A DNA stretch of 64,000 bases from positions 320,001-384,000 of the forward strand of contig CAWFFN010000009.1 of assembly GCA_963815115.1 (NCBI GenBank), written 5' to 3'. Both the position numbers and the translations under genes were made by a program. Positions within the stretch are counted from its first letter, which is position 1, and each line of letters starts with the position of its first letter. The DNA is from an uncultured delta proteobacterium (GTDB lineage: Bacteria; Desulfobacterota; Binatia; DP-6). Of this stretch, positions 2,802-47,690 are shown piece after piece. Below the pieces are notes generated by a model. The model did no database searches, had not been told where the DNA came from, and saw nothing but the letters and a program-made list of their open reading frames with translations.

Positions 2802-2892
2802 CTGATAGGCACGACGAAGGGCCTTTTGCCGCGGAGGCTTACAGAACGCCCCATCCCGGACCTTCGCCGCATTTTCGCACGCTCCGTCAACA
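2802..2892 (+). repeat. solo copy of the 90-bp module (CTGATAGG...CCGTCAACA)
   Basis: Near-identical to 21964-22053 but not followed by IS110. Confidence 0.9.
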
Positions 2893-3628
2893 CAGACCCC
2901 ACCTGTAGCTTGCTAGACCCAGCTCTGGCGAGGGCTTACGCGCGGCCGACCGGCTGCGGTAGGCCCTCGTCGGCTGGGGTTCCATGTACGCACCATGTAC
3001 GCAGGCATCCGCGGCGTCAGGGGCTCCGCCACGAGCGAGGCGACGTCGATACCCGCTTGATGACCCGCGCGGAGAACCTGGCCTCGACGGATCTTTCGGG
3101 CTGGCTGGACTCCGTGCAGACGTGGCGGCTCACGCACTCATAGGATGCCGCATCCTGTGCGCCTGCCGCGCTGGCCGCCCTGAAGTATGTCGGGCGCTCG
3201 CCACCCGTGACGGTACTGTCCCTGACCTTCCAGGCGTTCGGGCGCCTGCAGGCGTCGCGTCCCTCGGTCCGTTGGCGGTCGTCGCGTCCGGCCTCCTCGT
3301 CCTCGGGCTGCTTCGCTACCGGTGACGATCGACGATACGCGGCGGCGCGTGGCTGGATCGCAGGGACGATCGCAGCGATCAGTCTGGGAAGGGCGCATGA
3401 AGGGGGTATTCGCCCTTCGTCCCTACCAGCCATCTCCCCGGCGCGTCTACCAGCCCGCCGCCCTTCCGTAACGGAGGTACAGGGTCTCGTCCTCAAGGAC
3501 ACAAGTCGAGGATCAGAACCTCGGCCTCGACGGGGGCTCGTACGCGGGGCTCGTGTGACGGGCAGGTATGTGATTCCTTGGCTGCCTGCAGGAACCGCAG
3601 AACGCGCGCGTGAATGGTATCTCCCCGC

Positions 3629-4792
3629 TCACGGTCGAGCGGGCGGAACGCGCCCGTCCCGGAGCCAAGTGGTCACCACCCGGCACGCGAGGTCGAGGTT
3701 GCCCATCTGGCAATGACTGTCGGCGTGCTCGGCAGCGGTGAACATCCGCACCTGCACCGAGCGTGCCGAGGTGAGGGCTGCGGCCTGGCGCCGAGTCAGG
3801 ACCGGCGGCTGGAACGCGTCGTGCTCACCGCAACACAGCAGCACGTCCTGCGTGACGCGGGCGCTGCCGATGTGCTCGGCGTTCATTCCCAGGAACCAGT
3901 CGGCCACATCCATCGGCTCGTGGCCGTCGACGAGGTAGAGCGTCTGGTTCACGACGTACCGGAGCACCGGGAAGAGGCGCGCCCGCACCCGGATGCTCCA
4001 GTTCATGACTCCCCGGAGCCGGAGCATCCGCCGGGCGACGGCGCGCACCGGCCCCGGCAGCTGGTACAACCAGTCGTACACCGGGGGCCAGCTCACGACC
4101 CGGTCGATGCGCGGTTCGCGACCCGCGGCGCGCAGTGCCCAGTATCCGCCCATCGAGATTCCGACGATCGCAGCGCGGTCGACTGAGAAGTGGTCAAGGA
4201 CCGCGGCCACGGGCTTCTCCCAGTCGTGATCGAAGGTCAGCCGACCGAGGGCGCGCGCGCCGCCCTGCCCGGGGCCTTCGTAGGCGATCACGTCGAAGCC
4301 GCTCGCGGCGATGCGCTCCCAGATCGCGTAGAATTCCTCGATCAACGAGTCGAAGCCGCCGTGAAGCAACACGGTGCCGCACGACGCCGACCCGACGACG
4401 CGAAGTCGATAGGCGGGAAGCGTCGCGCCGCCGTAGGGGATCTCGTGGCGGACCGCGCCCCCGTCGCGGAACGCGCGGTCGAACAGGTCGCGGTAGCGCC
4501 GGTAGATCGGGACTCCGGCGCCGAACCTCTTCGGAGTGAAGAACTCGGCGACGCGCAGATAGCTCGTCGCGTTGCGGAGCCGGCCCTCGGCCTCGACGCG
4601 CTCGGCCAAAGCGGTGAACACCTCGGCGCAGTCGTCGAGCGAGCTGATCGCTCGCGCAGCAGTTCTCAGCTCCTGGCCATCGGCGAAACCGAGGGCGTGC
4701 GCACGGTTGAGCTGGTAGTTGAGAAAAGGAATGCGGTGGAAGGCCTCGAACCCGACTGGCAGCTCCGCCATCTTTACGTCGAGATCGCCCAT
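3629..4792 (-). CDS. alpha/beta hydrolase (FrsA/esterase-like)
   Basis: HGGFDS, GPGQG, GISMGG nucleophile elbow, C-terminal HCQ. Confidence 0.85.
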   Translation of the reverse strand: MGDLDVKMAELPVGFEAFHRIPFLNYQLNRAHALGFADGQELRTAARAISSLDDCAEVFTALAERVEAEGRLRNATSYLRVAEFFTPKRFGAGVPIYRRYRDLFDRAFRDGGAVRHEIPYGGATLPAYRLRVVGSASCGTVLLHGGFDSLIEEFYAIWERIAASGFDVIAYEGPGQGGARALGRLTFDHDWEKPVAAVLDHFSVDRAAIVGISMGGYWALRAAGREPRIDRVVSWPPVYDWLYQLPGPVRAVARRMLRLRGVMNWSIRVRARLFPVLRYVVNQTLYLVDGHEPMDVADWFLGMNAEHIGSARVTQDVLLCCGEHDAFQPPVLTRRQAAALTSARSVQVRMFTAAEHADSHCQMGNLDLACRVVTTWLRDGRVPPARP

Positions 4793-4930
4793 CGATCGCA
4801 GCCTATCTGGTCAGTCCCGCAAATCGAACCGGCACCGCCACCGGCACGAGCCGCCGCGCGCCGCCGCCGGCACCCGCAAGGTGCGCTCACGACTGCGTGC
4901 GATCTGCGGAAGAGAGAGGCCCCCCTCGGC

Positions 4931-5617
4931 TCAGCCGATCCACGCGAGCGCCTGTTCCAGCACCCGGAAGCCGTCGGCAGGTACGCACGCGCCGTGAGCG
5001 ATCATCACCCGCTCGGGGTTCCAGCCGAGCACCTCGGCCTTCGCTCGACGCGCCGCCCGACGGTCGACGAACGTCAGGCGCAGTTCGCGCGGCGTGCTGC
5101 CGCCCGGACCGACAAGGCCGTCGAGCCGCATGATCCAGCCCCGCCACCCGCGGGCCACGGACGGGTCGAACCGCTGGACCAGATCCGCGAAGATGGCCGT
5201 CCGCGAGGCGCGATGAAAGAACACGACCTCCTCCAGCGCGAAGCTGCCGTGGAAGATCACCTGATCGATGTCGCGTGCCCAGGCAGGGTCGGGCGCATCC
5301 CCGAGCTCGTCGTCGAAGCGCAGCTCCCGCCGCCGGCGCGCGAGGCCGGGCGAGGCGTGCAGTCGTGCCGCGGGCCAGCGCGCCTTCCAGGCGCCGAGGA
5401 AGAGGTGGTGAAGCTTGTTGGGCGAGACAACGTCGCCGACGGGTCCGAGCCGGTCGATCTCCTGCGCGAGCGCGTCATCGAGTGCGATCGGCGACCAGGC
5501 CCACAGCGTGCCGTTGCGGAGCCGAACGAGTACCATCCGCGTCGGATATGGGAACCCGAGGAAGGAGACGGTCGGACCATCGGCGATCCAGATGTCCCGA
5601 TCGACCGTCGTGAGCAT
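4931..5617 (-). CDS. DUF4336-type protein (metallo-beta-lactamase-like)
   Basis: YPTRMVLVRL, SPNKLHHLF, EVVFFH, AHG motifs. Confidence 0.8.
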   Translation of the reverse strand: MLTTVDRDIWIADGPTVSFLGFPYPTRMVLVRLRNGTLWAWSPIALDDALAQEIDRLGPVGDVVSPNKLHHLFLGAWKARWPAARLHASPGLARRRRELRFDDELGDAPDPAWARDIDQVIFHGSFALEEVVFFHRASRTAIFADLVQRFDPSVARGWRGWIMRLDGLVGPGGSTPRELRLTFVDRRAARRAKAEVLGWNPERVMIAHGACVPADGFRVLEQALAWIG

Positions 5618-5654
5618 GGCGGGATGGTCAGTGGCTATCAATGACGGTCGGCGA

Positions 5655-6062
5655 GTGAAAGCGACCGCCGCATTCCTTGCGTTGACGCTCGTCGCGCTCG
5701 GCTCCTGTGGATCCCGACCCGACCCCTCGACGCCGGGCGGCGCCGCCGCCCGCTTCCTCGATGCCTACTTCGGCCTCGACCTCGACGCGGCGCTGGCGGC
5801 GAGCGTTCACCGTGCACGCGAGCGGGTCGAGGCGGAGCGACGGCTCACGGCCGGGCAGCGGGTCGACGCGGAGACACGGGTGCCGATCATCCGCTATCGC
5901 CTTCTGCGCGAGGAGCCGGGGGAGGGTACCATGGTTCATCTCGTCTACGAGGTTCGCGCCACCGTGCCGGACGCCGGGACGAGCGAGCAGCGATGGCTCG
6001 TCACCGTCGATCGGATCGGAGAGAGGTGGATCGTCGCGGACTTCGATCGCCTTCCCGGCTGA
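5655..6062 (+). CDS. putative lipoprotein
   Basis: GTG start, MKATAAFLALTLVALGSC lipobox-like signal. Confidence 0.65.
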   Translation: MKATAAFLALTLVALGSCGSRPDPSTPGGAAARFLDAYFGLDLDAALAASVHRARERVEAERRLTAGQRVDAETRVPIIRYRLLREEPGEGTMVHLVYEVRATVPDAGTSEQRWLVTVDRIGERWIVADFDRLPG

Positions 6063-6423
6063 AGAGCGGAGGCGGTCGGTCGCGGGACGAACGGAGGCCT
6101 GACGGCGCAAGACGCAGTGTTCTGGACGATCGTCTCGGAAAAGTCGTGCTGCGCTACGTGGACGCGACGCGGCACGTCGACACGGCACGCCATCGACCTG
6201 ATCGCTCTATCGGCGCTGCTGTGGACAATCGTGGAGTCGGTCCAATTCCTGGCATGACGCCGGGTGAAGTGGAAGTGTCGAGCGGCGATGAAGCTGAGAT
6301 GTCGAGAATCAGCGGCAATCGTCGTTGGCCGACCCGATGCCGTAGCGGTTCCCATCGGGTGTGCGGACGTCGTCCCTCTCCGCACGCCTTGCTCAACTGG
6401 AGGGATACTCAGCGGAGTAGATT

Positions 6424-6534
6424 GTGAGCGACATCGATGAGACGAGGCGCCGTGAGGAGAGAGGCAAGCGCATCGCGATCGTCATGGCCCTGATCGCTTT
6501 GGTCGTCTTCGGCTTCGTTTGGTTCTTCCGGTAG
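6424..6534 (+). CDS. 36-aa single-pass membrane microprotein
   Basis: GGAG then GTG; MSDIDETRRREERGKRIAIVMALIALVVFGFVWFFR*; too short for the ORF track. Confidence 0.5.
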   Translation: MSDIDETRRREERGKRIAIVMALIALVVFGFVWFFR

Positions 6535-6847
6535 TAGTTCGACCGCCTCGGTGCCGACGACCCGACGGTAGGCGACGTGCCTGCGCCGTCTTCGGCCGCC
6601 GCGCCCACTGTTCGGGCACCTCGTGCTCCGTCGCTGTCACCACCAACTCAGCCTTCGGTCGCCCCCAACGCCATCCGCCTCCTCCTCATAGCAGAGACGA
6701 CTGGGCGACTTATTCCGTGAACTTCGGGCTCAGGACACTAGAGAGAGGTACGCGCTGTGGATGTGCACCCAGTCCCTGGCGTGGAACCACATGCGGGATA
6801 CCTGGTGCGAGAGTGGCCACGGTGCACGATGGCGGGGGGTCCGACCT

Positions 6848-9028
6848 TCATGACGGCGTCGAGTGTGCACCCTCCAGGAACGCTCGCACCGCTGCCTCGT
6901 TTGACCGGTGGGTCGTGATCATGAGGACGTCACCGGCATCGATCCGGGTGTTTGCCCGGGGGAAGAGGGTCTCGCCGTCGCGCGTGATCGAGACCACCAG
7001 CGCATCGCGAGTAAGTCGCGCCTCCGCGAGCGTCCTTCCCGTGAGCGGTGACGACGCGGCGATGTGCGCCTCGAACAGCGACGTATCCTGTGGAAGCGTG
7101 GCGGCCCGGCGCACGCTGCGTCTCAGCGTAGCCTTGTAGGTCTGGAGGATGTCGCGCACCGTCACCCGGCCGACGACGTGACCGCTGTCCAGGACGGGAA
7201 GCCAGCTCATCCCGGAGTCCACCAGCCGGCCGAGCGCCGCCTCCAGCGTGTCGTTCGGCCCCAGCTTGTCCGGAAGTTGCGACATCGCCGCTTCCGCCAG
7301 GACGGAGGGATCGTCCGATCGCATCACCTCGTCGATGCGCGCCTGCGTGATGACGCCGACGACCTCGGCATTGCCGTTCACGACGACGACACCCGTCTCG
7401 CGCGCCCCCTCCGGCGCGGTGCTCACGGGCGTCGTGGCGACGAGAACGGGACCGGGAGCCGCCATCGCGTCGCGAACCAGCAACGCCGACAGCATCGGAA
7501 AGCTCAGGCGGACACGATGGAAGGGCGAGCTCGACCGATCTCGAAGCTGGGAGCGATAGATGGTCTTGTCGCCGACGAGGGCGGTCGACACCGCGACCGC
7601 GATCATCGCCGGCGCCAGCAGCGAGAGGTTGCCGGTCATCTCCGCAACCATCAGCATGACCGCGAGGGGCGCATGCGCGATACCGCCGAAGAGCGCCATC
7701 ATGCCGATGATCACGAACGCGGTCGGCTGCGTCGGCATGTGTGGCAGCACCCCGTAGCCGAGCCGCCACAGTGACGCGCCGAGCATCCCGCCGACCACCA
7801 TGCCGGGCGCGAAGATGCCGCCCGATCCGCCGGAGCCGATCGACAGCGACGTGGCGACGATCTTCGCGAACGGCAGGACGAGGACGATCCACAACGGAAG
7901 CGCGAGCAGCGTGTCGCTCCGCATCCCGAGCTGCACCCAGCCGTATCCCATGTGCAGGATCTGGGGCATCACGATGCCGATCAGTCCGACGATCAGGCCG
8001 CCCAGCGCCGGCTTCACCCACGCGGGCAGTCGCAGGTGGTGAAAGATGCTGGTGATGCCGTAGAAGGCGCGCGCATACAGCAGACCACCGAGCCCGCTCG
8101 CCACCCCGAGCACCGCGTAGTAGACGAGCTCGACGGGCGAGCCAAGCGCCAGCTCCGGGTGATTGCCGAACATCGGCGCGAAGCCGCAGTACGAGCCAAA
8201 CACCGTGTATCCGACGATCGATGCGATGAGCGCCGGGATGATGGCCTCGACCTCGAAGTCGTGGATGTAGAGGATCTCGCTCGCCAGCAACGCGCCCCCG
8301 AGGGGGGCGCGGAAGATCGCGCCAATGCCAGACCCGATCCCCGCGGCGACCGCGATCCGCCGGTCGGCGAGATCGAGACCGAGCCAGCCCGCGAGCAGGG
8401 AACCGAACCCGGCCGATATCTGCGCCGTGGGCCCTTCCCGGCCGGCCGAGCCGCCCGAGCCGATCGTAATCGCCGACGCGACCAGCTTGATCGGCGGGAT
8501 GCGCGCGCGGACGCGCCCCTCGTGGTGATGGATGGCCGCGATCGCGGCATCGGTCCCGTGACCCTCGGCCTCGGGAGCGAGCTTGAACACGATGAGGCCG
8601 GAGAGGAGTCCGCCGAGGGTCGTCACAAAGGGCAGCCGCCAGGGATGCTCCATGGCCATGACCACGGTGAGCCCCTCGCCGGCCGGTGCGGGCGGCATGT
8701 AGCCGACAACGGCACCGAGAAAGAACTCGGTCACGAAGCGAATGGCGGCGTCGAAGACGATGGCGGCAACCCCCGCGACCACGCCGATCGCCGAGCTCAC
8801 GAGAAGCCACTTGGTGAGGCTCCGGGTGCTCTCGAATCCAGCGCCTCCGGAGAACATCGAGCGCAGACGACCCGTGTTCTCGATCGGGCGCGGCGGTGTC
8901 CCCTGTTGGCCCGGGAAGCGGGAGTCTTCGACAGGAACGAGCGGCATGTCGGGAATGAGATCATCGCAGACCCCATCGATCCAGCCTATCAATTCGGGCA
9001 TCGTGCGCCCGGCTTGCAGGCAGAGCAC
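6848..9028 (-). CDS. ClC chloride channel / H+-Cl- antiporter with CBS pair and TrkA-C domain (start codon uncertain)
   Basis: GHGTD, GREGP and GIFAP selectivity motifs; C-terminal CBS and RCK-C-like segments. Confidence 0.9.
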   Translation of the reverse strand: MLCLQAGRTMPELIGWIDGVCDDLIPDMPLVPVEDSRFPGQQGTPPRPIENTGRLRSMFSGGAGFESTRSLTKWLLVSSAIGVVAGVAAIVFDAAIRFVTEFFLGAVVGYMPPAPAGEGLTVVMAMEHPWRLPFVTTLGGLLSGLIVFKLAPEAEGHGTDAAIAAIHHHEGRVRARIPPIKLVASAITIGSGGSAGREGPTAQISAGFGSLLAGWLGLDLADRRIAVAAGIGSGIGAIFRAPLGGALLASEILYIHDFEVEAIIPALIASIVGYTVFGSYCGFAPMFGNHPELALGSPVELVYYAVLGVASGLGGLLYARAFYGITSIFHHLRLPAWVKPALGGLIVGLIGIVMPQILHMGYGWVQLGMRSDTLLALPLWIVLVLPFAKIVATSLSIGSGGSGGIFAPGMVVGGMLGASLWRLGYGVLPHMPTQPTAFVIIGMMALFGGIAHAPLAVMLMVAEMTGNLSLLAPAMIAVAVSTALVGDKTIYRSQLRDRSSSPFHRVRLSFPMLSALLVRDAMAAPGPVLVATTPVSTAPEGARETGVVVVNGNAEVVGVITQARIDEVMRSDDPSVLAEAAMSQLPDKLGPNDTLEAALGRLVDSGMSWLPVLDSGHVVGRVTVRDILQTYKATLRRSVRRAATLPQDTSLFEAHIAASSPLTGRTLAEARLTRDALVVSITRDGETLFPRANTRIDAGDVLMITTHRSNEAAVRAFLEGAHSTPS

Positions 9029-9800
9029 CCCACTATCGGTTGGCGCGACGAGTACACGAAGCGAAATCGCCGACGTCGGCGAGGCGCCGGCTGCGAAGAC
9101 GCGGCGTGGGATGGCGCCGTGCCGCCCCTCTGTGCGAGATGCTTAGCGTGCGCGGGCGCGCATCGATGGTCGGTAGCGGCCCATCGCGTAGGCGCGGCCG
9201 AGACGGGGAGAGATCGTGTGGCCGCACGATGGATCCACCGGTCGGTGCCGTCAGGACGGGCGGTCGGCTCGGGCGCGGGGGGCGACTCGCGGTCCTCGTC
9301 CCGGCCGGACTCGAGATCGACGAGCCGGGTGTGCCTCGCGAGTTGGGTCTCCTGCAGCGTTGCTTCCGCATCGCGGATGCGCGTCTCGTACTCGTCGCGC
9401 ACGATATCGAGCACGTCGCGCGGATGGTCAGGTCTCTCGCCTCCTGAAACGCCTGCACCTGCGCAGTCTCGTAGGCAAGGTCCCGCACGCACGACGCTGG
9501 CGGGGCACGCACCTCGGCCACGCCGTGACGGGCGCCGTCGTCCACCTCAGCGAGGACCGTTCCCCTGCCGCGTTTCTGACGGAGGCCGGCTGACCAGATC
9601 TCGGCTCCTTGCAGAGAAGTCGGACACGGAGACTCTTCCAGCGCGTACGACCGGTGCTCGCGGGTCGCTACAAGCTCATGTCGCGACGAGCTCCTCAAGA
9701 ATCCGGATGGCCGGCGCCCGTTTCGTGAGCAGCGAGGCAGGTGCTGCCTCGGCTCTGTGCACCGCTCCGGATGTCGGCGACGGAAAGCGGACCTCCGCGG

Positions 9801-9816
9801 CGGCCCGAACGTTGCA
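9801..9816 (+). promoter_or_regulatory. candidate sigma-54 (-24/-12) promoter for glnK-amtB
   Basis: CGGCCCGAACGTTGCA has GG-N10-GC spacing, about 260 bp upstream of the P-II gene. Confidence 0.45.
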
Positions 9817-9921
9817 TGCACGGAACCAGGACCGTCTCGGTCTCTACGCAAGGGGAAGGATAGGGGGAGCGCGTCTGGAGATGGCCGTCTTGGTGTTTCC
9901 TGGTGCCAGGCGTCCGGGTGA

Positions 9922-10416
<495 letters not shown>

Positions 10417-10472
10417 AGGAATCCGGCTCCCCACCAAGGTCGCACATGGGGAGCCGACTGGGGGGACCTGAC

Positions 10473-32679: not shown

Positions 32680-34250
32680 CTGATAGGCACGACGAAGGGC
32701 CTTTTGCCGCGGAGGCTTACAGAACGCCCCATCCCGGACCTTCGCCGCATTTTCGCCCGCTCCGTAACAAGTTCCCACCGACCCCGGGGGTCGACCCGCG
32801 ATGGAGGAAACTGGTACGGCGCCGCTGCCGGCACCGAGGTCGAGCAATGTCTGGTGCGCGAAGCCCGCTAACAAGTTGGACCCGACGTCCCGTGCGCACC
32901 CGTGATTGTCGCCACGGACCGCGCGGTCCGCGAGCACGCTTGGTAGACTGCTGCCCCCAGGGACGTCACGCCGGCAGAACGGGAGGACGTGACGATGGAG
33001 GTCATCCATGCCCAGTGCGCGGGGCTCGACGTACACAAGCAGACCGTGGTGGCCTGCGTGCGGATCACGGGCGCGGGGGGCGTGCGGCGCGAGGTGCGGA
33101 CGTTTGCGACGACCGCCGCCGAGCTGCTGGCCTTGCAGGAGTGGCTGGTGGCCGCCGGCTGCACCCATGCCGTGCTGGAGTCGACGGGCGTCTACTGGAA
33201 ACCCGTGTGGCACGTGCTCGAGGACCACCTGACCCTCGTGCTGGCCAACGCGACGGCGGTGCGCAATCTGCCCGGGCGCAAGAGCGACGTGAGCGACGCG
33301 CAGTGGCTCGCGGATCTGCTCGCCCATGGGCTGGTGCGCGGCAGCTTCGTGCCGCCCGCGCCGATTCAGGCGTTGCGCGAGCTGACGCGGACGCGCAAGC
33401 AGCTCGGGCGGGAGGTCACCGCCCACAGTCAGCGGATCGAGAAGGTGCTGGAGAGCGCGGACGTGAAGCTCGCCGCGGTGCTCCGCCCGCTGCTCGGCGT
33501 CAGCGGGCGGGCGATCATCGCGGCCCTGGCGGCGGGCGAAACCGATCCCGAGCGCCTCGTGGCGTTAGCCCACCCGCGGCTGCGGCCGAAGCGGGCCGCG
33601 CTGCGGGCCGCGCTGCCCGGGCACGTCCGGCCGCATCATCGCGTCTTGCTGGGTCAGCACCTGCGGGTGGTCGAGACGCTGCGGGCGACGATCGCGGAGC
33701 TGGATGCCGCGATCGGGGCCGCCGTCGCCCCGTATCGCGCCGCCGTCGACCACCTCGTGACGATGCCCGGCGTGAGCACGACGGCGGCGCAGATCCTGGT
33801 CGCGGAGATCGGCACGGACATGAGCCGCTTCCCCAGCGCGGGGCATCTCGTCTCCTGGGCGGGGCTGTGTCCGCGCCAGGACGCGAGTGCGGGCAAGCAC
33901 CGCTCCACGCGCCTCCGCAAGGGGGCGCCGTGGCTCAAGCCCGTGCTCATTCAGGGCGCGTGGGCAGCGGTGCGAGGCCGCGAGGGCTACCTCCGCACCC
34001 AGTTCCTGCGCCTCAAGCATCGCCGCGGTCCGATGAAGGCCATCGTCGCGGTGGCCGCCTCCATGCTCACCGCCGCCTATTACATGCTGCGCGACGACCA
34101 AGACTATCACGACCTCGGGGCCGCCCACTTCCAGCGCGGCGACCACAACCACCTCGTCGCCGGACTCACCCGCCGCCTCCACCACCTCGGTTACGAGGTC
34201 ACGCTCCGCCCCGCCGCCTGACGCCGCGTACCGAGCGAGTTACTTGGTAG
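32680..34250 (+). mobile_element. 90-bp module (32680-32769) plus IS110 element, copy 2
   Basis: Matches copy 1. Confidence 0.95.
32989..34221 (+). CDS. IS110-family recombinase/transposase
   Basis: Same 410-aa protein as 22273-23505. Confidence 0.97.
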   Translation: MTMEVIHAQCAGLDVHKQTVVACVRITGAGGVRREVRTFATTAAELLALQEWLVAAGCTHAVLESTGVYWKPVWHVLEDHLTLVLANATAVRNLPGRKSDVSDAQWLADLLAHGLVRGSFVPPAPIQALRELTRTRKQLGREVTAHSQRIEKVLESADVKLAAVLRPLLGVSGRAIIAALAAGETDPERLVALAHPRLRPKRAALRAALPGHVRPHHRVLLGQHLRVVETLRATIAELDAAIGAAVAPYRAAVDHLVTMPGVSTTAAQILVAEIGTDMSRFPSAGHLVSWAGLCPRQDASAGKHRSTRLRKGAPWLKPVLIQGAWAAVRGREGYLRTQFLRLKHRRGPMKAIVAVAASMLTAAYYMLRDDQDYHDLGAAHFQRGDHNHLVAGLTRRLHHLGYEVTLRPAA

Positions 34251-37053: not shown

Positions 37054-37256
37054 TTCACGCGGGTTTCTTGCGCGACTTTCTCACGGATGATTTGCCCGCA
37101 TGATTCACGCGAGTTTCTCCCACGACGTTCTCACGGATGATTTGCCCGCATGATTCACGCGAGTCTCTGCCGCGACGTTCTCACGGATGATTTGCCCGCA
37201 TGATTCACGCGAGTCTCTGCCGCGACGTTCTCACGCATGATTTGCCCGCATGATTC
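37054..37256. repeat. four tandem 50-bp repeats
   Basis: TTCACGCGAGTCTCTGCCGCGACGTTCTCACGGATGATTTGCCCGCATGA-like units start at 37054, 37104, 37154 and 37204. Confidence 0.95.
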
Positions 37257-37257
37257 T

Positions 37258-37344
37258 TGTTACGGAGCGGGCGACAATGCGGCGAAGGTCCGGGATGGGG
37301 CGTTCCGTAAACCTTCGCAAAACCCCGTTCATCGCTCCTATCGG
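37258..37344 (-). repeat. diverged solo copy of the 90-bp module
   Basis: CCGATAGG...GAACGCCCCATCCCGGACCTTCGCCGCATTGTCGCCCGCTCCGTAACA followed by AG. Confidence 0.9.
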
Positions 37345-37611
37345 CACGAGGTGGAGATCAACGCGCCGGTCTCCCGCGTCGCGGAGCACGAGGCGGGCGG
37401 GCAAGCCCGGAGCGTCGCTGAACCCTAGCGCCGCGAGCGCCGCAAGCGCGCGGGATTCGTCGGCCCGCCTGACGACCAGGTCGAGGTCGTCGTGTTGCCG
37501 TGTCTGCCTACGGAGAAGCGCGTCCACGCCCCAACCACCGTCGATGCACGTTTGGACCCCCACCGCCTCCAGTTGCTCCAGCACCGCGATGACGTCTCGC
37601 GCGCTCATCAT
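37345..37611 (-). pseudogene. aminoglycoside/lincosamide nucleotidyltransferase-family protein, truncated by the module
   Basis: DGGWGVDALL, HDDLDL, RVDLH. Confidence 0.8.
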
Positions 37612-38469
37612 GCAGGCCACTCAAGCGGAGCGGCCTGGGGCTATCAAGTTGGACACGCACTAGCTAGCACGGCCCGGCACCCGCGCTGGGGGCAACCGGC
37701 AACCCGACAACCTCTTTCGGCGCCCTGTCGCGAAGAAAACCGCGGGGGCGCCGCCTCGCGGGCCGGCCCACCGTGGGAAGGACCCGCGTCATCGCACGGT
37801 CGTCGACGGCGGCGGTCACTGTGGCGCTCGCAACGCACGCGGGTCGTCACCACCACAGCATCGCGATCGATCGCGGTACTCGAATGCAGCCCCGCCACTT
37901 ACCGTGCATATTTCAGTGGATGTCGGCCTGCCACCCTCGCTTGGAGCCCGACGACGCTCTCGTTCGACCACCACCCCGTCGAGAGCGTTGCCCATAGCAC
38001 GTTTCAAAGTCCCGAAGGTCGAGGCGGCAGTGGTGCGCCCGCACTCAGCCGTACTTCGTCTCGCGCGCCCGCTGGCGCGTTGACGCCGCGCAGAGGATGG
38101 CAGTAGGCTGTGATTTCTGTCTCATCGTCTAGCACTGTTCATCGTTGGGATCGTCGGCCTGTCGCTCGCCGCCACGCGAGGACGTGCCGCGGCGGCGTGC
38201 CCGAACACCTCCACGCAGCAGACTGGCCGAGTGCAAGCGGATGTGCCCCGCGGGTGGACACGGGCGCCGCGACTGCCGGGCGGCCTGCAGCGAGCGGAGC
38301 ACGTGCACCGCCCCGGGCGCGCGCATCCGGACGCTCGCCTAAGTGGTGAGCGAGTGCACCACCGACCCGCAGGGGCGGAGCTCGCTGAAGCAGAAGCTCC
38401 TCATCCGCCGCGGGAACTGAGGCAAGCTTGCTCGAGCGAGAGGACGAGTCGACCGCGGAGGGGGGCTCG

Positions 38470-41130: not shown

Positions 41131-41152
41131 AACGATGCGACGCCCATCTGGA

Positions 41153-41181
41153 TGTAGCGTCGCTACACGGCCTGTAGCGCC
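41153..41181. promoter_or_regulatory. operator-like motif, copy 1
   Basis: TGTAGCG-T-CGCTACA-N5-TGTAGCGCC. Confidence 0.65.
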
Positions 41182-41196
41182 TGGATTCATGGCGCC

Positions 41197-41598
41197 ATGC
41201 CGTCACGGGACTCAATTCACGACCGGGTGCACCGCACACCGATCTTTCGCCGCGAAGGGGATTACTGGACGATCGAGTACGACGCAGCGGTGGTGCGGCT
41301 TCGGGACGCCAAGGGGCTGCGCTATATCGAGCCGCTGCTGCGGCATCCCGGCCGCTCCTTTCACGTCGCCGAGCTGATCCGCGTGGCGGACTGCCCGGAC
41401 GGGCGCCGGCCGGCGGCGGACGACGGAACCGCCGAGGCCGTCGAGCGTGCCCGCAAAGCCGTCACCAACCGCATCCGGGGGACGCTGGCGCGGATCGCCA
41501 ACGTCCACCACGCCCTGGGGCTCCACCTGCGCAACGCGGTCCACACCGGGACGCGCTGCGTCTACACGCCGGAGCGGCCGACCGGATGGGCGGAATGA
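41197..41598 (+). CDS. stand-alone paralog of the upstream C-terminal regulator domain
   Basis: FRREGDYW...DAKGLRYI...RARKAVTNRIR...HLRNAVHTG. Confidence 0.75.
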   Translation: MPSRDSIHDRVHRTPIFRREGDYWTIEYDAAVVRLRDAKGLRYIEPLLRHPGRSFHVAELIRVADCPDGRRPAADDGTAEAVERARKAVTNRIRGTLARIANVHHALGLHLRNAVHTGTRCVYTPERPTGWAE

Positions 41599-41606
41599 AC
41601 CTGTCG

Positions 41607-41635
41607 TGTAGCGTCGCTACGCCAGTTGTAGCGCC
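41607..41635. promoter_or_regulatory. operator-like motif, copy 2
   Basis: TGTAGCG-T-CGCTACG-N5-TGTAGCGCC, same spacing as copy 1. Confidence 0.65.
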
Positions 41636-41801
41636 ACATAAGGCGTTCGGATGAACGAGCTGAAGCTTCGGCGCAGCTCAAACGTACGAAGGAGGCAGGA
41701 ATGAGCGAGAGGGATTCGAAAATGCCTGTCCGTTCCCTCGGGGGCATTCGTATCTTCTCGATGGCGCAGAATCGTTACAGACGAGCGAAAGGAGACCAAC
41801 T

Positions 41802-42311
41802 ATGAAACGAATTTCAAGCCTTATGCTCATGGCGGCTGCCATGATGTTCCTCGGCCTGCGGCCAACCGGCGCCGCAGCGGATGAACCAATCGTTGGCCTT
41901 TGGCAGGTAACCTGGAAGGACGCCGTCACCCAAGCGGTGGTTCTCAATGTCTGGGACGTCTGGCATGCGGACCGGACAGAGACCCAGAACGACACCACTC
42001 CGATACTGATCGGAAACGTCTGCCAGGGTGCGTGGATTCCGCTTGGGAAGCGAACCTACGGCCTGACTCACCCGGCTTTCAACTTTCTGAGCGCGCCTGA
42101 GGATCAAGAGGGTCAACCCGATTCCAGCAACAGCGCCCTGGTACTGGAACGAGTGACGGTTTCGAAGGATGGGAACACCCTTCAGGGCCTGGGGATCTAT
42201 AAGACGATCGCGGGCATGGATCCCCTGGACCCTCACGCGGCCGTGCTGAGTTCTGAGAATATCACCATCACCGGGAAGCGGGTCCAGGTCGACCAGACTC
42301 AACTTCCCTAG
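41802..42311 (+). CDS. secreted hypothetical protein
   Basis: AAGGAG RBS, signal peptide, IVGLWQV. Confidence 0.75.
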   Translation: MKRISSLMLMAAAMMFLGLRPTGAAADEPIVGLWQVTWKDAVTQAVVLNVWDVWHADRTETQNDTTPILIGNVCQGAWIPLGKRTYGLTHPAFNFLSAPEDQEGQPDSSNSALVLERVTVSKDGNTLQGLGIYKTIAGMDPLDPHAAVLSSENITITGKRVQVDQTQLP

Positions 42312-42426
42312 TCTGTGAGGGGGGAACATCAGATGCATGTTCCCTGTCAGTGTCAATCTCGGGGGCTCGGCGGCCCACCCGGGCATCCGAACACCACCAA
42401 CGACGAACCGAAGGGAGAACCCGCGC

Positions 42427-43389
42427 ATGTTGTATAGTCTGATGACCCGCGTCCCCTGCATCAGCCGCCTCGTTCTCGCTGTCGTCGCGCTTGTTGCCGT
42501 AGGAGCGGCACCAGCCGGGGCCGACTGCACCCGCGCGAAACTGAAGGCCATCGGCAAGAAGGAATCGGGTCTCCTCGCCTGCCAGGCGAAGGTCGCAGCG
42601 AGCGGCGACTCCTCCGGCCTCTCGGCTTGCGAATCGAAGGTGATGGCCAAGTTTAGCCACGCGTTCGGGAATGCCGGCACCTGCATGGGCGACCAGACGG
42701 CGTGTGAGAGCATCGCAGACGGCTGCGAGTCGTCGGTTGCCGGGGCTTTCATCGACACCTTCCCGAGCGACTGCGAGGTCCGGAAGCGGAAGGCGGCGGG
42801 AAAGCTCGCGAAGGGCGAACTCGGGTGCTACGCGAAGGCCGCAACGAAGGGACTGCCGGTGGATAGCGTGGTCTGCATCCCGAAGTCCACGATGAAGTTC
42901 TCGGTGGCGCTAACCAAGGCGGGGACGTGCCCGGACGGCGGCTCGCCCCAGAGTTTCGTCGAGAGCCACTGCGTCACCCCAGCCGTCACAACCGACGGTG
43001 GCGGCGTCGTGACCGATGTATGTCCGACTACCACGACCACGACCACGCTGCCCCCGCAGCCGTGCACCTCCGTCGTGGGCGGCTTCTGCTGGTACCTGGG
43101 TGCGTTTGATGCGGACTGTGACGCTACCTGTGCGGCGGAGGGACGGGTGTACGACGCCGCGACAGCTACGTATGCGGGCAGTTCGGGAACCAACGCGAAC
43201 TGCGAGGCTGTTCTCACTGCTTTGGGTCACCCGGGATCGGTCGCTGACGGATCGCTGAGCGTTGGCGGCGGTTTCGGCTGTTCTTGGATCTGCCCTAGAG
43301 GCTGCGGGGTAGGATTCCGCGACATCGGTGAGACGACCACATCTGGAGCCTCCGCCGCGCTATTCCAGCGGGCTTGTGCGTGCATGTAG
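42427..43389 (+). CDS. secreted Cys-rich protein with Thr-rich linker
   Basis: Signal peptide, two C..K.KA.GK...L.C.AK units, TTTTTTTLPP. Confidence 0.75.
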   Translation: MLYSLMTRVPCISRLVLAVVALVAVGAAPAGADCTRAKLKAIGKKESGLLACQAKVAASGDSSGLSACESKVMAKFSHAFGNAGTCMGDQTACESIADGCESSVAGAFIDTFPSDCEVRKRKAAGKLAKGELGCYAKAATKGLPVDSVVCIPKSTMKFSVALTKAGTCPDGGSPQSFVESHCVTPAVTTDGGGVVTDVCPTTTTTTTLPPQPCTSVVGGFCWYLGAFDADCDATCAAEGRVYDAATATYAGSSGTNANCEAVLTALGHPGSVADGSLSVGGGFGCSWICPRGCGVGFRDIGETTTSGASAALFQRACACM

Positions 43390-43526
43390 CCAAGGAAGAA
43401 CCCACAGCCCCAGGCGCTCCGAGTCTGCCCCTTCTCATTACAAGCTAACACAGTGAACCCCACCACAAGTGTTGCGACGTACCGCACCGCACCAAGGCCG
43501 CTCGAGACCGAAGGGAGGACCCGTTC

Positions 43527-43847
43527 ATGTTGTATAGTCTGACGACCCGCATCGCCTTGGTGCTCGCCCTGGCGGTGACGGGGGCACGGCCCGCCGGCGC
43601 CGCCGACCAGACCATCCTCGGCCGCCGGCTCGTGGTGAAGAACCCCCTCGGGGAGGCGGACAGCACCGGCAAGCGGCAGTTTGTGGTCAAGGCGAGGGAG
43701 ATCGGGAGCCCCGACACCATCGTGGGTGACCCTACCGCCGCCGGCGCCAGCCTCTCGATCACGCTCAATGACGGCACGCAGCCGTGCACCGCTGGCCTGG
43801 GTGGCCACGCCGAGAAGGCGAAAGCGCCGAGAAGGACGCCACGATGA
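43527..43847 (+). pseudogene. secreted protein fragment
   Basis: Signal peptide and ADQTILG..GDPT..GA motif related to the next gene; ends abruptly. Confidence 0.5.
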
Positions 43848-45790
43848 CGCAGTACACGCGAGCCTTGGTCGTCCTGGTGTGGGTCGTGCTCGGGGCGAGC
43901 ACGCTCCGAGCGGCGGACGAAGTGATCCTCGGCACGCAGGTCCGGATCAAAGACCCGACGGGGGTCGAGGACCGGCGGCAGGTGAAGGTGGTCGGGAAGG
44001 AATCCCAGACCGCCTTGCCGACGCCCCTCGCGCAGCCGGGTGCGGGGGCCACGTTGACGGTGGTTACGCAGGGGACGACGCCCAGCGCGCAGGCGTTCGT
44101 GCTGACCGGCACCTGGGTGGCGGCGGGGTCCAGTGGCTGGAAGTACGTGGCGGGCGGCACCGCGCCGGTGAAGTTGCTCCTCCTCAATCGGACGGCGAAC
44201 GGGACGGCGCAGCTGAAGGTGCTGCTCAAGGGGAATGTGGGCACCGACCCGCTGACCCTTGTGCCGCCGAACCTAGGCACGGAGGCCGGCATCATTCTCG
44301 ATGACGGCAACGGGACGCGGTATTGCCTGCGCCTCGGTGGCGCGGCGGGCGGGGTCGTGAAGAAGAACGACGCGACGCAGTTCTTCCTCGGGGTGCGTGC
44401 GACTGCCCCGGCAATCGAGGCGGGGTGCCCGACGACCACGACGACCAGCACGACGTTGCCGAGCACGACGACCACGACGACCACGACGTTCACGAGCACG
44501 ACGACGTTGGGGTCTCAATGTGGTCAATATCCGACGTGCGCTGACAGCTGTCCCACCGGTCAAGCCTGCGGGGTGTTCTGTGGGTTCAGAGGGTGCGGTT
44601 GTTTCTGCGTCCCGTCCGACGAATGTGCGGGTTCGGCACCAACCTGTGGCGGGTCGTGCCCCAGCGGCCAGGTCTGTAGCCCACTGAACGGCGTGAACGC
44701 CTGTGAGTGCGGATACACCTGCGATTCTTCCGAGGCGCCGACGTGTGGCGGAACGTGCCCCCCGGGGCAGGTGTGCGGGCAGGGAACGGGCACCACCGCC
44801 TGCACGTGCGTCACGCCCGACAACACCTGCGGCATTTCCCAGGGACCCACGTGCGGCGGGACGTGCCCCAGCGATGGGGCCTGCCGTCCGAGTTCGGGTG
44901 GAAACTCCTGCGAGTGCGTGTGCGGCTCGCCGCCGCTTTGCCCCTTCGTCACCAAGTGGGGCAGTACGGGTAGCGGGCACGGGCAGTTCAACGTCCCCTT
45001 GGGCGTCGCCGTGGATGCGAGCGGGCACGTCTTCGTCGCCGACGCACATAACGACCGCATCCAGAAGTTCCGGAGCGATGGGACCTTCGTCACCCAGTGG
45101 GGCAGCAACGGCAGCGGGGACGGGCAGTTCAGCTTCCCTGTTGGCGTCGCCGTGGATGGGAGCGGCAACGTCTACGTCGCCGACACGAACAACGAGCGTA
45201 TCCAGAAATTCACGAACACCGGGACCTTCCTGACGAAGTGGGGCAGCGGCCCCGAGCCCGGGGGCGTCGCCGTGGATGCGAGCGGGAACGTCTTCGTCGC
45301 CGAATCCAACGGCTCGCGTATCGACAAGTTCACGAACACCGGGACCTTCCTGCTCACCTTCGGGACCGAAGGCTCGGGGGATGGGGAGTTCGCTAACCCC
45401 GTCGGCGTCGCTGTTGATGGGAGCGGGAACGTCTTCGTCGCCGACGGCAGCTTCTTCTTCCCCGGCAACAACCGCATTCAGAAGTTCACGAACGCCGGGT
45501 CCTTCTTGACCAAGTGGGGCAGCCCGGGCAGCGGAGACGGGCAGTTCGATCAGCCCCAAGGGATCGCCGTGGACGGGAGCGGGAACGTGTTCGTCACCGA
45601 GGGCTCCCACAACACCCGCATCCAGAAGTTCACGAACACCGGCACGTTTCTCGGGCAATGGGGTTGCAATGTCGCCGGCAGCGCGGATGGGTTGTTCAGC
45701 GACCCCCGCGGGCTTGCCGTGGATGGGAGCGGTAACGTCTACGTCGCCGACTCCCTAAACAGCCGCATCCAGAAGTTCGCGTGTCCATAA
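43844..45790 (+). CDS. secreted NHL-repeat (6-bladed beta-propeller) protein with Cys-rich repeats
   Basis: Six P.GVAVD.SGNV.VAD..N.RIQKF repeats, PTCGG.CP repeats, Thr linker. Confidence 0.9.
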   Translation: MTQYTRALVVLVWVVLGASTLRAADEVILGTQVRIKDPTGVEDRRQVKVVGKESQTALPTPLAQPGAGATLTVVTQGTTPSAQAFVLTGTWVAAGSSGWKYVAGGTAPVKLLLLNRTANGTAQLKVLLKGNVGTDPLTLVPPNLGTEAGIILDDGNGTRYCLRLGGAAGGVVKKNDATQFFLGVRATAPAIEAGCPTTTTTSTTLPSTTTTTTTTFTSTTTLGSQCGQYPTCADSCPTGQACGVFCGFRGCGCFCVPSDECAGSAPTCGGSCPSGQVCSPLNGVNACECGYTCDSSEAPTCGGTCPPGQVCGQGTGTTACTCVTPDNTCGISQGPTCGGTCPSDGACRPSSGGNSCECVCGSPPLCPFVTKWGSTGSGHGQFNVPLGVAVDASGHVFVADAHNDRIQKFRSDGTFVTQWGSNGSGDGQFSFPVGVAVDGSGNVYVADTNNERIQKFTNTGTFLTKWGSGPEPGGVAVDASGNVFVAESNGSRIDKFTNTGTFLLTFGTEGSGDGEFANPVGVAVDGSGNVFVADGSFFFPGNNRIQKFTNAGSFLTKWGSPGSGDGQFDQPQGIAVDGSGNVFVTEGSHNTRIQKFTNTGTFLGQWGCNVAGSADGLFSDPRGLAVDGSGNVYVADSLNSRIQKFACP

Positions 45791-46037
45791 GACAGTTGCC
45801 TGACGCAGACCCAGCGTCGCTTACTGCGACCTGCCACTTGTGTCGTTCCTGTTTGGGCTCGGGAGCGCGGTCGGCATCACGTCGATCGCGGCGGGTCTGG
45901 CGTGAAGTGGCAGCGGATCGGACTGTCGCTTCTACCCGCGTGCGACGTGCCAGTCGCGCCGGTCGCACGGGCCGAGGAGGGTACGCGCCGACTCCTCGCG
46001 TAGGGCGGCGCGCGGCGCACGTTGCTGGGACTCGTAG

Positions 46038-47600
46038 CTGATAGGCACGACGAAGGGCCTTTTGCCGCGGAGGCTTACAGAACGCCCCATCCCGGACCTT
46101 CGCCGCATTTTCGCCCGCTCCGTAACAAGTTCCCACCGACCCCGGGGGTCGACCCGCGATGGAGGAAACTGGTACGGCGCCGCTGCCGGCACGAGGTCGA
46201 GCAATGTCTGGTGCGCGAAGCCCGCTAACAAGTTGGACCCGACGTCCCGTGCGCACCCGTGATTGTCGCCACGGACCGCGCGGTCCGCGAGCACGCTTGG
46301 TAGACTGCTGCCCCAGGGACGTCACGCCGGCAGAAGGGAGGACGTGACGATGGAGGTCATCCATGCCCAGTGCGCGGGGCTCGACGTACACAAGCAGACC
46401 GTGGTGGCCTGCGTGCGGATCACGGGCGCGGGGGGCGTGCGGCGCGAGGTGCGGACGTTTGCGACGACCGCCGCCGAGCTGCTGGCCTTGCAGGAGTGGC
46501 TGGTGGCCGCCGGCTGCACCCATGCCGTGCTGGAGTCGACGGGCGTCTACTGGAAACCCGTGTGGCACGTGCTCGAGGACCACCTGACCCTCGTGCTGGC
46601 CAACGCGACGGCGGTGCGCAATCTGCCCGGGCGCAAGAGCGACGTGAGCGACGCGCAGTGGCTCGCGGACGCTCGCCCATGGGCTGGTGCGCGGCAGCTT
46701 CGTGCCGCCCGCGCCGATTCAGGCGTTGCGCGAGCTGACGCGGACGCGCAAGCAGCTCGGGCGGGAGGTCACCGCCCACAGTCAGCGGATCGAGAAGGTG
46801 CTGGAGAGCGCGGACGTGAAGCTCGCCGCGGTGCTCCGCCCGCTGCTCGGCGTCAGCGGGCGGGCATCATCGCGGCCCTGGCGGCGGGCGAAACCGATCC
46901 CGAGCGCCTCGTGGCGTTAGCCCACCCGCGGCTGCGGCCGAAGCGGGCCGCGCTGCGGGCCGCGCTGCCCGGGCACGTCCGGCCGCATCATCGCGTCTTG
47001 CTGGGTCAGCACCTGCGGGTGGTCGAGACGCTGCGGGCGACGATCGCGGAGCTGGATGCCGCGATCGGGGCCGCCGTCGCCCCGTATCGCGCCGCCGTCG
47101 ACCACCTCGTGACGATGCCCGGCGTGAGCACGACGGCGGCGCAGATCCTGGTCGCGGAGATCGGCACGGACATGAGCCGCTTCCCCAGCGCGGGGCATCT
47201 CGTCTCCTGGGCGGGGCTGTGTCCGCGCCAGGACGCGAGTGCGGGCAAGCACCGCTCCACGCGCCTCCGCAAGGGGGCGCCGTGGCTCAAGCCCGTGCTC
47301 ATTCAGGGCGCGTGGGCAGCGGTGCGAGGCCGCGAGGGCTACCTGCGCACCCAGTTCCTGCGCCTCAAGCATCGCCGCGGTCCGATGAAGGCCATCGTCG
47401 CGGTGGCCGCCTCCATGCTCACCGCCGCCTATTACATGCTGCGCGACGACCAAGACTATCACGACCTCGGGGCCGCCCACTTCCAGCGCGGCGACCACAA
47501 CCACCTCGTCGCCGGACTCACCCGCCGCCTCCACCACCTCGGTTACGAGGTCACGCTCCGCCCCGCCGCTGACGCCGCGTACGAGCGAGTTACTTGGTAG
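46038..47600 (+). mobile_element. 90-bp module (46038-46127) plus IS110 element, copy 3
   Basis: Same as copies 1 and 2 apart from small indels. Confidence 0.95.
46344..47572 (+). pseudogene. IS110 recombinase with frameshifts (possibly read errors)
   Basis: Deletions near 46670, 46865 and 47569 relative to copies 1 and 2. Confidence 0.85.
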
Positions 47601-47690
47601 CTGATAGGCACGACGAAGGGCCTTTTGCCGCGGAGGCTTACAGAACGCCCCATCCCGGACCTTCGCCGCATTTTCGCCCGCTCCGTAACA
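47601..47690 (+). repeat. 90-bp module abutting the IS110 right end
   Basis: TACTTGGTAG then CTGATAGG...CCGTAACA, then unrelated GGGAGG. Confidence 0.95.

Follow-up and report, generated by a model that had tools for sequence, protein, structure and literature searches.

A 90-bp non-coding repeat as the probable homing site of IS110-family insertion sequences

A non-coding sequence of 90 bp with fixed ends, here called the module, recurs within the 64-kb stretch of DNA that was analysed (the window), in places directly before an insertion sequence (IS) of the IS110 family and in places without one. This raises the question of whether the module belongs to the IS, moves by itself, or is the site on which the IS lands. 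A preliminary description had left the choice between a mini-element, a portable landing pad and the scar of an excised IS. The analysis suggests that the module is probably a small lineage repeat that serves as an IS110 homing site, is not part of the IS, and is read at its right end by a bridge RNA.

Copies, ends and subtypes of the module

The six copies in the window lie where they had first been placed: CTGATAGG is found five times on the plus strand at exactly these sites (0.74 expected from shuffles), and a repeat finder returned five direct copies of 94 nt with 95-100% identity and an inverted copy at 37256-37318 with 91-94%. The fixed ends were reproduced as well. Upon alignment all six copies start with (G)CYGATAGG and stop with CCGTAACA, the copy at 2802 carrying one more C, and direct repeats flank none of them, in line with the reported absence of a target-site duplication. 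Three copies (2802, 47601 and 37344..37258) indeed have no IS behind them.

2801..2892, plus strand: solo module of type A (A variant, one extra C near its end)
21963..22055, plus strand: module of type A (C variant) with AG core, immediately left of IS-alpha copy 1
32679..32771, plus strand: module of type A (C variant) with AG core, left of IS-alpha copy 2
37256..37345, minus strand: solo module of type B (87 nt + G + AG), inverted
46037..46129, plus strand: module of type A (C variant) with AG core, left of IS-alpha copy 3
47600..47690, plus strand: solo module of type A (C variant), immediately behind the right end of IS-alpha copy 3 (...TTGGT-AG-CTGATAGG)

Genome-wide, a profile (E below 1e-20) finds 18 near-identical modules, nine on contig C9 (318-430 kb) and nine on contig C5 (1376-1419 kb), all restricted to these two islands. 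Elsewhere in the genome there are 11 weaker relatives, two of which are the flanks of a second element, IS-beta, bringing the family to 29 members with 18 of them in the islands. In all 16 copies that could be read, the base before the left end is G, the dinucleotide being AG (7), GG (8) or TG (1), and this G is assigned to the module because native homologues of two left flanks have another base there. To the right, AG follows in 7 of 14 solo copies, the remainder having GG, GA, AC or a variant end. Types A and B are separated by a 3-base indel; type B copies end in AACA-AG and contain an inverted repeat of 6 bp (GGAGCG/CGCTCC), set seven to eight bases in from either end. The two halves of the module, left and right, assort independently, and neighboring modules have variants in common. 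The core pattern has 19 matches in this genome as against 0-2 per genome in 24 relatives from the same order, and the sharp-ended family is also found in three other genomes of the genus, a Polyangia genome and two metagenome contigs, the latter being all that a core-pattern scan of metagenomes returned. No record of a plasmid collection matched the module.

Several other readings of the module sequence were rejected. Rfam gave nothing at gathering score across the whole window and chance-level matches around the IS (the best being Methylosinus-1, minus strand, E 0.33). Single-sequence folds of both strands were no better than shuffles (z 0.05 and -0.08), and RNAalifold predicted zero pairs for 18 family members; a candidate stem, GCGAAGG/CCTTCGC, is paired in 78%, a value reached by 158 of 500 shuffles. 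A coding function, prompted by the 3-base indel between types A and B, was rejected because, as judged by eye, single-base indels on either strand distinguish a more distant member (L018). A simple scan found no promoter or terminator in the module. A DDE-type reading, in which the right end is a TG...CA terminus and modules occur in inverted pairs, was dismissed by eye on two inverted pairs on C5 that have no target duplication.

IS-alpha and the reading of the module's right end

The IS next to the modules, IS-alpha, measures 1479 bp including one AG, starting AG|TTCCCACC and ending TTACTTGGT-AG. Its transposase combines the DEDD N-terminal domain (PF01548, E 3e-14) with the IS116/IS110/IS902 C-terminal domain (PF02371, E 1.5e-21), the latter having 12 matches across the genome. 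Consistent with the IS110 group, IS-alpha has no terminal inverted repeats and repeats one core dinucleotide at both junctions, which is AG in 4 of 4 copies.

22056..23534, plus strand: IS-alpha copy 1 (IS110 family), right end ...TTACTTGGT-AG
22056-22278: predicted bridge-RNA region of copy 1
22153-22159: LTG-like TAACAAG of copy 1
22223-22230: LDG-like CTTGGTAG of copy 1
22279-23505: transposase of copy 1
32772..34250, plus strand: IS-alpha copy 2, with the same sequence as copies 1 and 4
46130..47600, plus strand: IS-alpha copy 3
843..965, minus strand: inverted right-end fragment from a relative of IS-alpha, with 84% identity to IS-alpha and 91% to a C5 fragment

In the assembly, copy 3 lacks eight single bases and has two substitutions relative to the other copies, and consequently its transposase frame is broken. 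A public contig supplies the missing C at two of these places (behind 47568 and 47581), and at least these two deletions may be assembly errors.

Sequence comparison separates the module from IS-alpha, of which it is not the left end. The body of the IS begins after ...TCCGTAACA-AG, and a 92% relative of its left end on contig C8 likewise starts ...TCCGTAACA-AG-TTCCCACC, with non-module DNA upstream that shares about 11 nt. Two elements in other genomes, L041 and L046, have transposases 91% and 90% identical to that of IS-alpha and sit behind the same 11 bases, directly after ...GCTCCGTAACA-AG; L041 is preceded by a partial module and L046 by a module of a different subtype, and their bodies begin differently, with TGAGTACC and TGCGCACC. 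Genome-wide, 14 of the 18 modules in the profile set have no intact IS. Together these observations argue against the module as an integral IS left end.

The left ends of eight related elements were aligned and their guides compared with the flanks by eye, following the rule that guides are sense copies that include the core, taken from the accessible part of PMC11208160. The variable segment that follows AGCCCG is identical to the left flank with its AG in 8 of 8 elements. Behind GAGCAC/GAGCGC, all six elements that have a right end on the locus carry a copy of that end plus AG, a count that leaves out L043 and L046, whose right-end sequence was not read. In 7 of 8 elements the IS body opens with the two bases that follow the first guide segment, the exception being L042. 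RNAalifold predicts 31 pairs for this alignment, 12 of them with compensatory changes, and places both guide segments unpaired inside two enclosed domains; no Rfam family matched the region. The two guide segments thus covary with the left flank and the right end of the elements in the arrangement of a bridge RNA, indicating that the right end of the module is the programmed left target. The sequence comparison therefore supports the module's right end as the left target half-site read by an IS110 bridge RNA; that this RNA is made and guides insertion is inferred.

In the proposed mechanism, the non-coding left end of IS-alpha would encode the bridge RNA. One unpaired segment, ...CUAACAAG-UU, would copy the last bases of the module, the AG core and the first two bases of the IS, and a second, GCUUGGUAG, would copy the IS's own right end plus AG. 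The recombinase-RNA complex would therefore insert a circular IS directly after ...TCCGTAACA-AG. The left half of the target alone is conserved, with variable bases to the right of the core. ‘Half-match’ insertions of this kind are known for IS621, according to the available part of a preprint (10.64898/2026.08.31.748434), and ten IS-alpha-type right ends have no motif common to their right flanks, which fits the recognition of the left half alone that is set out there.

TAACAAG occurs 29 times in the genome, 12 sites outside modules being unoccupied, and the five sites bearing an IS-alpha-type left end all read TCCGTAACAAG. All four intact copies of IS-alpha follow a type A module of the C variant, and seven modules of other subtypes with the identical 11-base TCCGTAACAAG have no IS. 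By hand arithmetic this split has a chance of 1 in 330 if sites are independent, which kin sites are not.

The module family is the target of three IS110 lineages, at three fixed positions. IS-beta, present in two copies with a transposase 59% identical to that of IS-alpha, sits within a diverged module in the opposite orientation, and on C8 its empty site is found as an uninterrupted copy in which the two flanks meet exactly, with one AG. A third element, IS-gamma, divides module B_1376 after GCCGATAGGCG, near the left end of the module. Its other left-end fragments with a readable boundary (5 of 5) follow (G)CAGATAG(G/C)CG-like bases, which are the left-end motif of the module. One unrelated DDE element probably also converged on it. 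With the right end as a programmed target, the other lineages and the empty site, solo modules are best read as targets that would be free or vacated, and not as scars. The landing-pad idea of the preliminary description thus survives in its core, namely a target half-site on a module separable from the IS.

Gene fragments at the module edges and competing explanations

Both edges of the module adjoin unrelated gene fragments with 90-99% identity to distant loci, and the segments between modules are pieces of genes.

866..2800, plus strand: sigma-54 activator, cut by the left edge of a module
20343..21962, plus strand: large serine recombinase gene that reads into a module and has no stop codon of its own
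32176..32678, minus strand: trypsin-like protease gene, N-terminal part absent at the left edge of a module
37346..37620, minus strand: nucleotidyltransferase gene (Aminoglyc_resit family), cut
47691..47911, plus strand: 221-bp fragment that starts exactly at the right edge of a module

The left edge had been said to truncate four genes, and for three this holds: the sigma-54 activator lacks everything past its ATPase domain, the protease its N-terminus, and the nucleotidyltransferase ends at profile position 86 of 149. The fourth had been labelled an IS91-like transposase; its Resolvase, Recombinase and Zn_ribbon_recom domains make it a large serine recombinase. Contig C7 carries a paralogue that shares the last 94 nt of the activator (2707-2800) at 99% identity and then continues differently. 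The fragment at 47691..47911 is the sole stretch matched by contigs of two other runs, which diverge on both sides of it. Beside the inverted module at 37256..37345 lie the truncated nucleotidyltransferase on the left and four 50-bp tandem repeats on the right. When 16 units (module, or module plus IS) were removed in a script and a spanning frame sought, candidates appeared for four, including the module at C5:1397552 and IS-alpha copy 1. At 2802 and at C5:1418266-1418356, insertion into a gene was rejected, homology showing the flanks to be non-continuous. No simple insertion is documented because in none of the cases tested are the flanks of a module continuous in a homologue. Synteny around two dispersed family members in four genomes of the genus yielded no empty allele, since the flanks have their matches on different contigs or have almost none. 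A pure target leaves the sharp left edge, the cutting of genes and the amplification of the module unaccounted for, and rival explanations were weighed.

Foremost among these, though we consider it rather doubtful, is a two-part element, in which module and IS-alpha were moved or duplicated as a unit and precise excision of the IS leaves the module as a scar. Copies 1, 2 and 4 are identical over all 1571 bp including the module, with different DNA on both sides, and the restriction of all four intact copies to one subtype, with seven equal targets empty, fits movement as a unit better than four independent hits and hints at some such movement. The junction of right end, AG and module that is expected of a unit circle or tandem is present at 47590-47610 and is spanned by a public contig. 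The 10-40 nt that follow the solo modules 2802 and C9:318218 resemble the left end of IS-alpha; at 2801..2892 this covers about 40 nt that look diverged, with BLAST extending to IS position 100. Against this, the guide bases after the core match the start of the IS body (UU / TT) and not that of the module (CT), and by eye no segment complementary to the left end of the module is found in the IS left end. Relatives elsewhere follow other subtypes, a partial module or, in one case, non-module DNA, and deleting module plus IS restores no continuous gene at copies 2, 3 and 4. In the parts of the window covered by contigs of public runs, no joint matches excision of the IS, all listed joints having short sides of about 20 nt.

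That the module is instead a mini-element like MITEPpu9, cut and pasted in trans by an IS110 recombinase, with the IS merely also targeting it, is in our estimate unlikely. It would agree with two fixed ends lacking a target duplication, with the constant G before the left end (16/16), with AG after the right end in 7/14 solo copies, with the lineage-specific expansion, with variants common to neighboring modules, and with the type B inverted repeat near both ends. IS110-family genes are the sole recombinase genes present in both islands: three of the four serine recombinase genes of the genome lie in the window and none in the C5 island, which also lacks tyrosine recombinase genes, the C9 island having one outside the window. 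A precedent exists in ssr9/MITEPpu9, mobilised by the ISPpu9 transposase as described in the accessible sections of PMC12288879. Nevertheless, the first and last 20 nt of the module resemble the ends of IS-alpha, IS-beta and IS-gamma in at most 3-5 bases by eye, so that the defining feature of MITEPpu9, resemblance to IS ends, is missing from the earlier mini-element proposal. Furthermore, left flanks share no target, and the discontinuity of module flanks in the homologues tested also speaks against it.

We regard as improbable a further reading, in which an array that collects DNA fragments from elsewhere would have the module as its repeat unit, with segments of 0.2 to several kb fixed between modules by bridge recombinases. 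RNA-guided IS110 recombinases would act on half-sites, with recombination at the two edges and the center of the module, giving an integron- or IS26-like accretion on a non-coding repeat with segments cut anywhere in genes.

Very improbable, finally, is an assembly artefact in which the islands are chimeric joins of related metagenome strains at the 90-bp repeat or the IS: the genome does behave like a metagenome bin, the stretch is present in soil-metagenome runs only, fragments next to modules match other loci of this bin with 90-99% identity, and single-base deletions of copy 3 are contradicted at two places by a public contig, but contigs of 0.8-1.9 Mb are hard to obtain unless reads far exceed 90 bp, the sharp-ended family recurs in the genus, Polyangia and metagenome sequences named above, and independent public contigs span the module/IS junction at 32769 (a short-read contig of run X1 covering 32722-33453 with zero differences) and the IS/solo-module junction at 47600 (a 709-nt contig covering 46966-47672).

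Significance and comparison with known systems

IS110 bridge-RNA recombinases are under development as genome-writing tools, and natural examples of site choice are therefore useful. This locus is a natural case of a target fixed in its left half alone, supplies eight covarying guide/target pairs (read by eye), and has three IS110 lineages on one 90-bp element at different fixed positions. If the seams were made by these enzymes, bridge recombinases would rearrange and collect host DNA in nature, beyond moving themselves; if they arose otherwise, the module would be a further, ordinary case of a lineage-specific repeat that offers a safe harbour.

In IS26-type arrays and translocatable units, direct repeat copies part unrelated segments and truncated genes, without target duplication. 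Direct module copies likewise divide unrelated DNA and truncated genes with no target duplication, the difference being that the repeat here is 90 bp long and non-coding.

Some IS1111-group elements insert specifically into attC sites of integrons, others into the terminal repeats of Tn21-type transposons. Like them, IS-alpha is an IS110-family element specialized on one fixed position in a repeat of mobile DNA; unlike in their case, no integron integrase, attC core sites or Tn3-type repeats were recognized (partly by eye), and the module has no match in the plasmid collection. An integron cassette array was rejected on similar grounds: no core sites are seen by eye, the segments between modules are gene pieces and not whole genes, and a tyrosine recombinase is absent from the C5 island and single, outside the window, in that on C9.

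The REP/BIME targets of IS621, ISPpu9 and ISPpu10 (Pseudomonas putida) are likewise short repeats of the host lineage used as specific targets, and the same repeat family is used by more than one IS110 lineage. The elements also share the absence of inverted repeats, a duplicated core dinucleotide (AG here and in ISPpu9), and a guide RNA upstream of the transposase gene, which is predicted here. A stem-loop that lies 5' of the paired bases contributes to the specificity of ISPpu10, as stated in the accessible part of 10.64898/2026.03.19.712850, and the module too has an inverted repeat in this place. The module nevertheless differs from a REP/BIME-type repeat, being 90 bp long as compared to about 35 bp, present in 18-29 copies as compared to hundreds with 18 in two islands, and adjoining truncated genes, whereas REP sequences lie between intact ones; its inverted repeat has no compensatory changes, and its target is conserved in the left half only.

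The preliminary description did not recognize the module as a described element, which was too strong, as homing of the IS110 family on small repeats and the modular ISPpu9/MITEPpu9 pair are already in print in the accessible text of PMC12288879. As far as that text extends, ISPpu9 and MITEPpu9 (ssr9) resemble the present case in that an IS110-group IS and a non-coding module occur linked, solo and in tandem with AG at their boundaries, suggesting modular movement. They differ from it, within the same limits, in that MITEPpu9 is found downstream of the transposase gene, between two near-copies (A', B') of the ends of the IS. The module described here lies upstream, its ends are unlike those of the IS, and its right end is the target of the IS.

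Copies of the module and the seams at its edges

The preliminary description reported six copies of the module, a non-coding repeat of about 90 bp that starts with CTGATAGG and ends in ...CCGTAACA, and all six were found where it had placed them. In the 6.9-Mb genome (12 contigs, 70% G+C; the window sits on contig C9, 320001-384000), a profile search returned 18 copies with E below 1e-20. These near-identical copies are split between two islands, with nine on C9 (318-430 kb) and nine on contig C5 (1376-1419 kb); relative to the contig that carries them, 15 are in + orientation. The same search found 11 weaker relatives, dispersed over C5, C8 and C9. Nine copies belong to type A (90 nt), type B modules measure 87 nt, and three further copies have a left part other than that of either type. 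A complete IS110-family element follows four copies, three in the window and one at C9:428603, and the junction of the IS right end with AG-CTGATAGG is present as one chromosomal copy. BLAST matches to the module were obtained in 4 of 61 relatives' genomes, including this one, and all four are in one genus; among 25 genomes of the order, a 24-base core pattern has 19 matches in this genome versus 0-2 in the others.

Both edges of the module are seams between DNA pieces. Two type B modules enclose a 1.6-kb piece (C5:1400816-1402430) that occupies the inter-module gap exactly and has 94.4% identity to C7:230300-228686; the native C7 locus lacks the module and has a different continuation on both sides. 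On the right of B_1376, a type B module on C5, a 1067-bp match to a C12 locus (96% identity) begins with the base that follows AACAAG. In front of the module at 2802, the last 94 nt match an activator paralogue on C7 with 99% identity; natively this sequence continues through the remainder of the gene, whereas at 2802 the module takes over. Behind the solo module at 47601, one with no IS following it, 221 bp match contigs of two other runs, and both ends then diverge. None of the tested cases showed the DNA on either side of a module, or of a module plus IS, to be continuous; two cases were undecided.

The junctions were checked against assembled contigs of public soil-metagenome runs. The module/IS junction of IS-alpha copy 2, IS-alpha being the IS110-family element directly right of some modules, is spanned with zero differences by a contig of run X1, and another contig links copy 3, across its right end, to the solo module, of which it covers 72 nt. 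These two junctions are therefore independently supported. Eight single bases present in the other three copies are absent from copy 3 (46130-47600), and this second contig has the C that is missing at 47568 and at 47581. Some of these deletions are probably consensus errors of the assembly, and assembly error may partly account for the broken reading frame of the copy 3 transposase.

Beyond the module neighborhoods too, the region as a whole is pieced together from segments that have near-copies at other loci, as in the short stretches at 17613-17866, 18247-18590 and 63085-64000, which are 97-99% identical to distant C7/C5 loci. Four tandem copies of a 50-bp unit (37054-37253, 91-100% alike) start four bases past the right end of the inverted type B module, and could be iteron-like or binding sites. 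The gene at 43772-45790 encodes a 672-aa NHL-repeat protein whose internal 141-bp repeats constitute repeat families D7-D9, a near-copy of these repeats lying at C12:570.7-571.5 kb. The sole case seen of context conserved beyond the module is a metagenome contig (L085), whose module has about 30 bases of right flank in common with the C5:1418992 copy (C5:1419079-1419110).

Boundary and predicted target of IS-alpha

Three lines of evidence show that the module is not a component of IS-alpha. On C8, a 92% identical IS-alpha left end starts at ...TCCGTAACA-AG-TTCCCACC, and what precedes those 11 bases is not module DNA. In public genomes, seven loci encode relatives of the IS-alpha transposase, and the two closest, whose proteins are 91% and 90% identical to it, stand directly behind ...GCTCCGTAACA-AG, the left neighbor being a partial module in one and a module of a different subtype in the other. 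The first bases of these two bodies are, moreover, unlike those of IS-alpha.

For the third line, the 223-nt non-coding left end of IS-alpha was aligned with those of related elements, eight in all (IS-alpha, six of the seven public loci and IS-beta, a further IS110-family element of this genome). The eight have a common conserved scaffold with two variable segments. On this alignment RNAalifold predicts 31 pairs, 12 with compensatory changes, and leaves both segments unpaired within two enclosed domains. When compared by eye with the element flanks, the first segment (CUAACAAG in IS-alpha) is identical to the terminal 5-9 bases of the left flank together with the core AG in all eight elements, and the second is identical to the right end of the element itself, again with AG, in each of the six for which that end was readable. 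The two bases behind the first segment are the first two of the IS body in 7/8 (UU/TT, UG/TG). In the excerpted text of Durrant et al. (PMC11208160), the left target and left donor guides of the bridge RNA pair with the bottom strand, core included, so guides appear as sense copies, as is seen here. From these three lines we conclude that IS-alpha, about 1479 bp long, is an ordinary element of the IS110 group, whose programmed left target would be the right end of the module. The bases right of the core vary among 10 IS-alpha-type right ends, which fits recognition of the left half-site only, a mode reported for IS621 in the excerpted text of a preprint (10.64898/2026.08.31.748434).

A second small repeat family, ending in ...CCCTTCCGTAAC, lies in the window at 3423-3481 and, inverted, at 26774-26832, and also in the flanks at C8:54333 and C8:808854; the C8 relative of IS-alpha is placed behind a sequence with this ending. 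Elements of the IS-alpha type may have two repeat families with the same last bases as possible targets. In a Gemmatimonadota record (L043), the element stands in tandem with a second copy of itself, whose right end it directly follows, and its left-target and left-donor segments are almost the same.

Other elements in the module and its spread

IS-beta (two copies, transposase 59% identical to that of IS-alpha) is located mid-way in a diverged module in the opposite orientation, and on C8 an uninterrupted module corresponds exactly to the two flanks of IS-beta joined through a single AG. IS-gamma, the third element of the IS110 family here, has a frame-shifted gene and interrupts B_1376 behind GCCGATAGGCG, and its other left-end fragments are preceded by the same left-end motif of the module. 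A DDE element, of the rve type as judged from its translation by eye alone, starts with TGTAGGCCCC and sits at ...TTCGCC|TGTAGG, the same position in two different module subtypes; this would make it the fourth element to occupy one fixed place in the module.

Hosts of the DDE element
L011 (G004:C222): another genome of the genus
L086: metagenome contig

The positions that IS-alpha and these three elements occupy argue for the module as a homing site.

Between types A and B there are 11 substitutions and one 3-base indel; all of them lie to the left of GAACGCCCC, and the right side is identical. The copy at C9:318218 has the same left-only divergence with yet another left half, and that at C5:1418992 combines a type B left half with five changes in the right half. 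By our own arithmetic, the chance of 11 changes all falling within the left 52 of 92 positions is about 0.002, and that of five all falling within the right 40 about 0.016. Variants are common to neighboring modules (1397/1400, 1404/1418, 46038/47601), and all four intact IS-alpha copies are behind type A modules of the 'C-variant'; another seven modules, of different kinds, have the same 11-base target and are empty. Taken together, the seams, the assorting halves, the shared variants and the single IS-bearing subtype suggest recombination at defined points of the module, along with some duplication of module and IS as one unit. The only recombinase genes common to both islands are of the IS110 family. 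Of the four serine recombinase genes in the genome, the window has three (20343-21962, 24555-24794 and 52291-52737): a large one, a partial one and a small resolvase.

Relation to known systems

Among the readings offered in the preliminary description, that of a landing pad for IS110 is supported by the IS boundary and the match between guide and flank. It assigns module and IS-alpha to a familiar class, that of IS110 elements which home on repeats specific to a lineage. The module itself is an undescribed variant, with sharp edges at gene-fragment seams, independent halves and a local copy burst. Among the papers searched, the ISPpu9 paper (PMC12288879, as excerpted) was the only one on IS110 with bridge RNA and MITE, and none dealt with IS110, Myxococcota and repeats together. 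The nearest comparison for the module is with the REP elements that serve as targets of IS621, ISPpu9 and ISPpu10, the last with a reported structural gate, as described in the excerpted texts of PMC12288879 and 10.64898/2026.03.19.712850.
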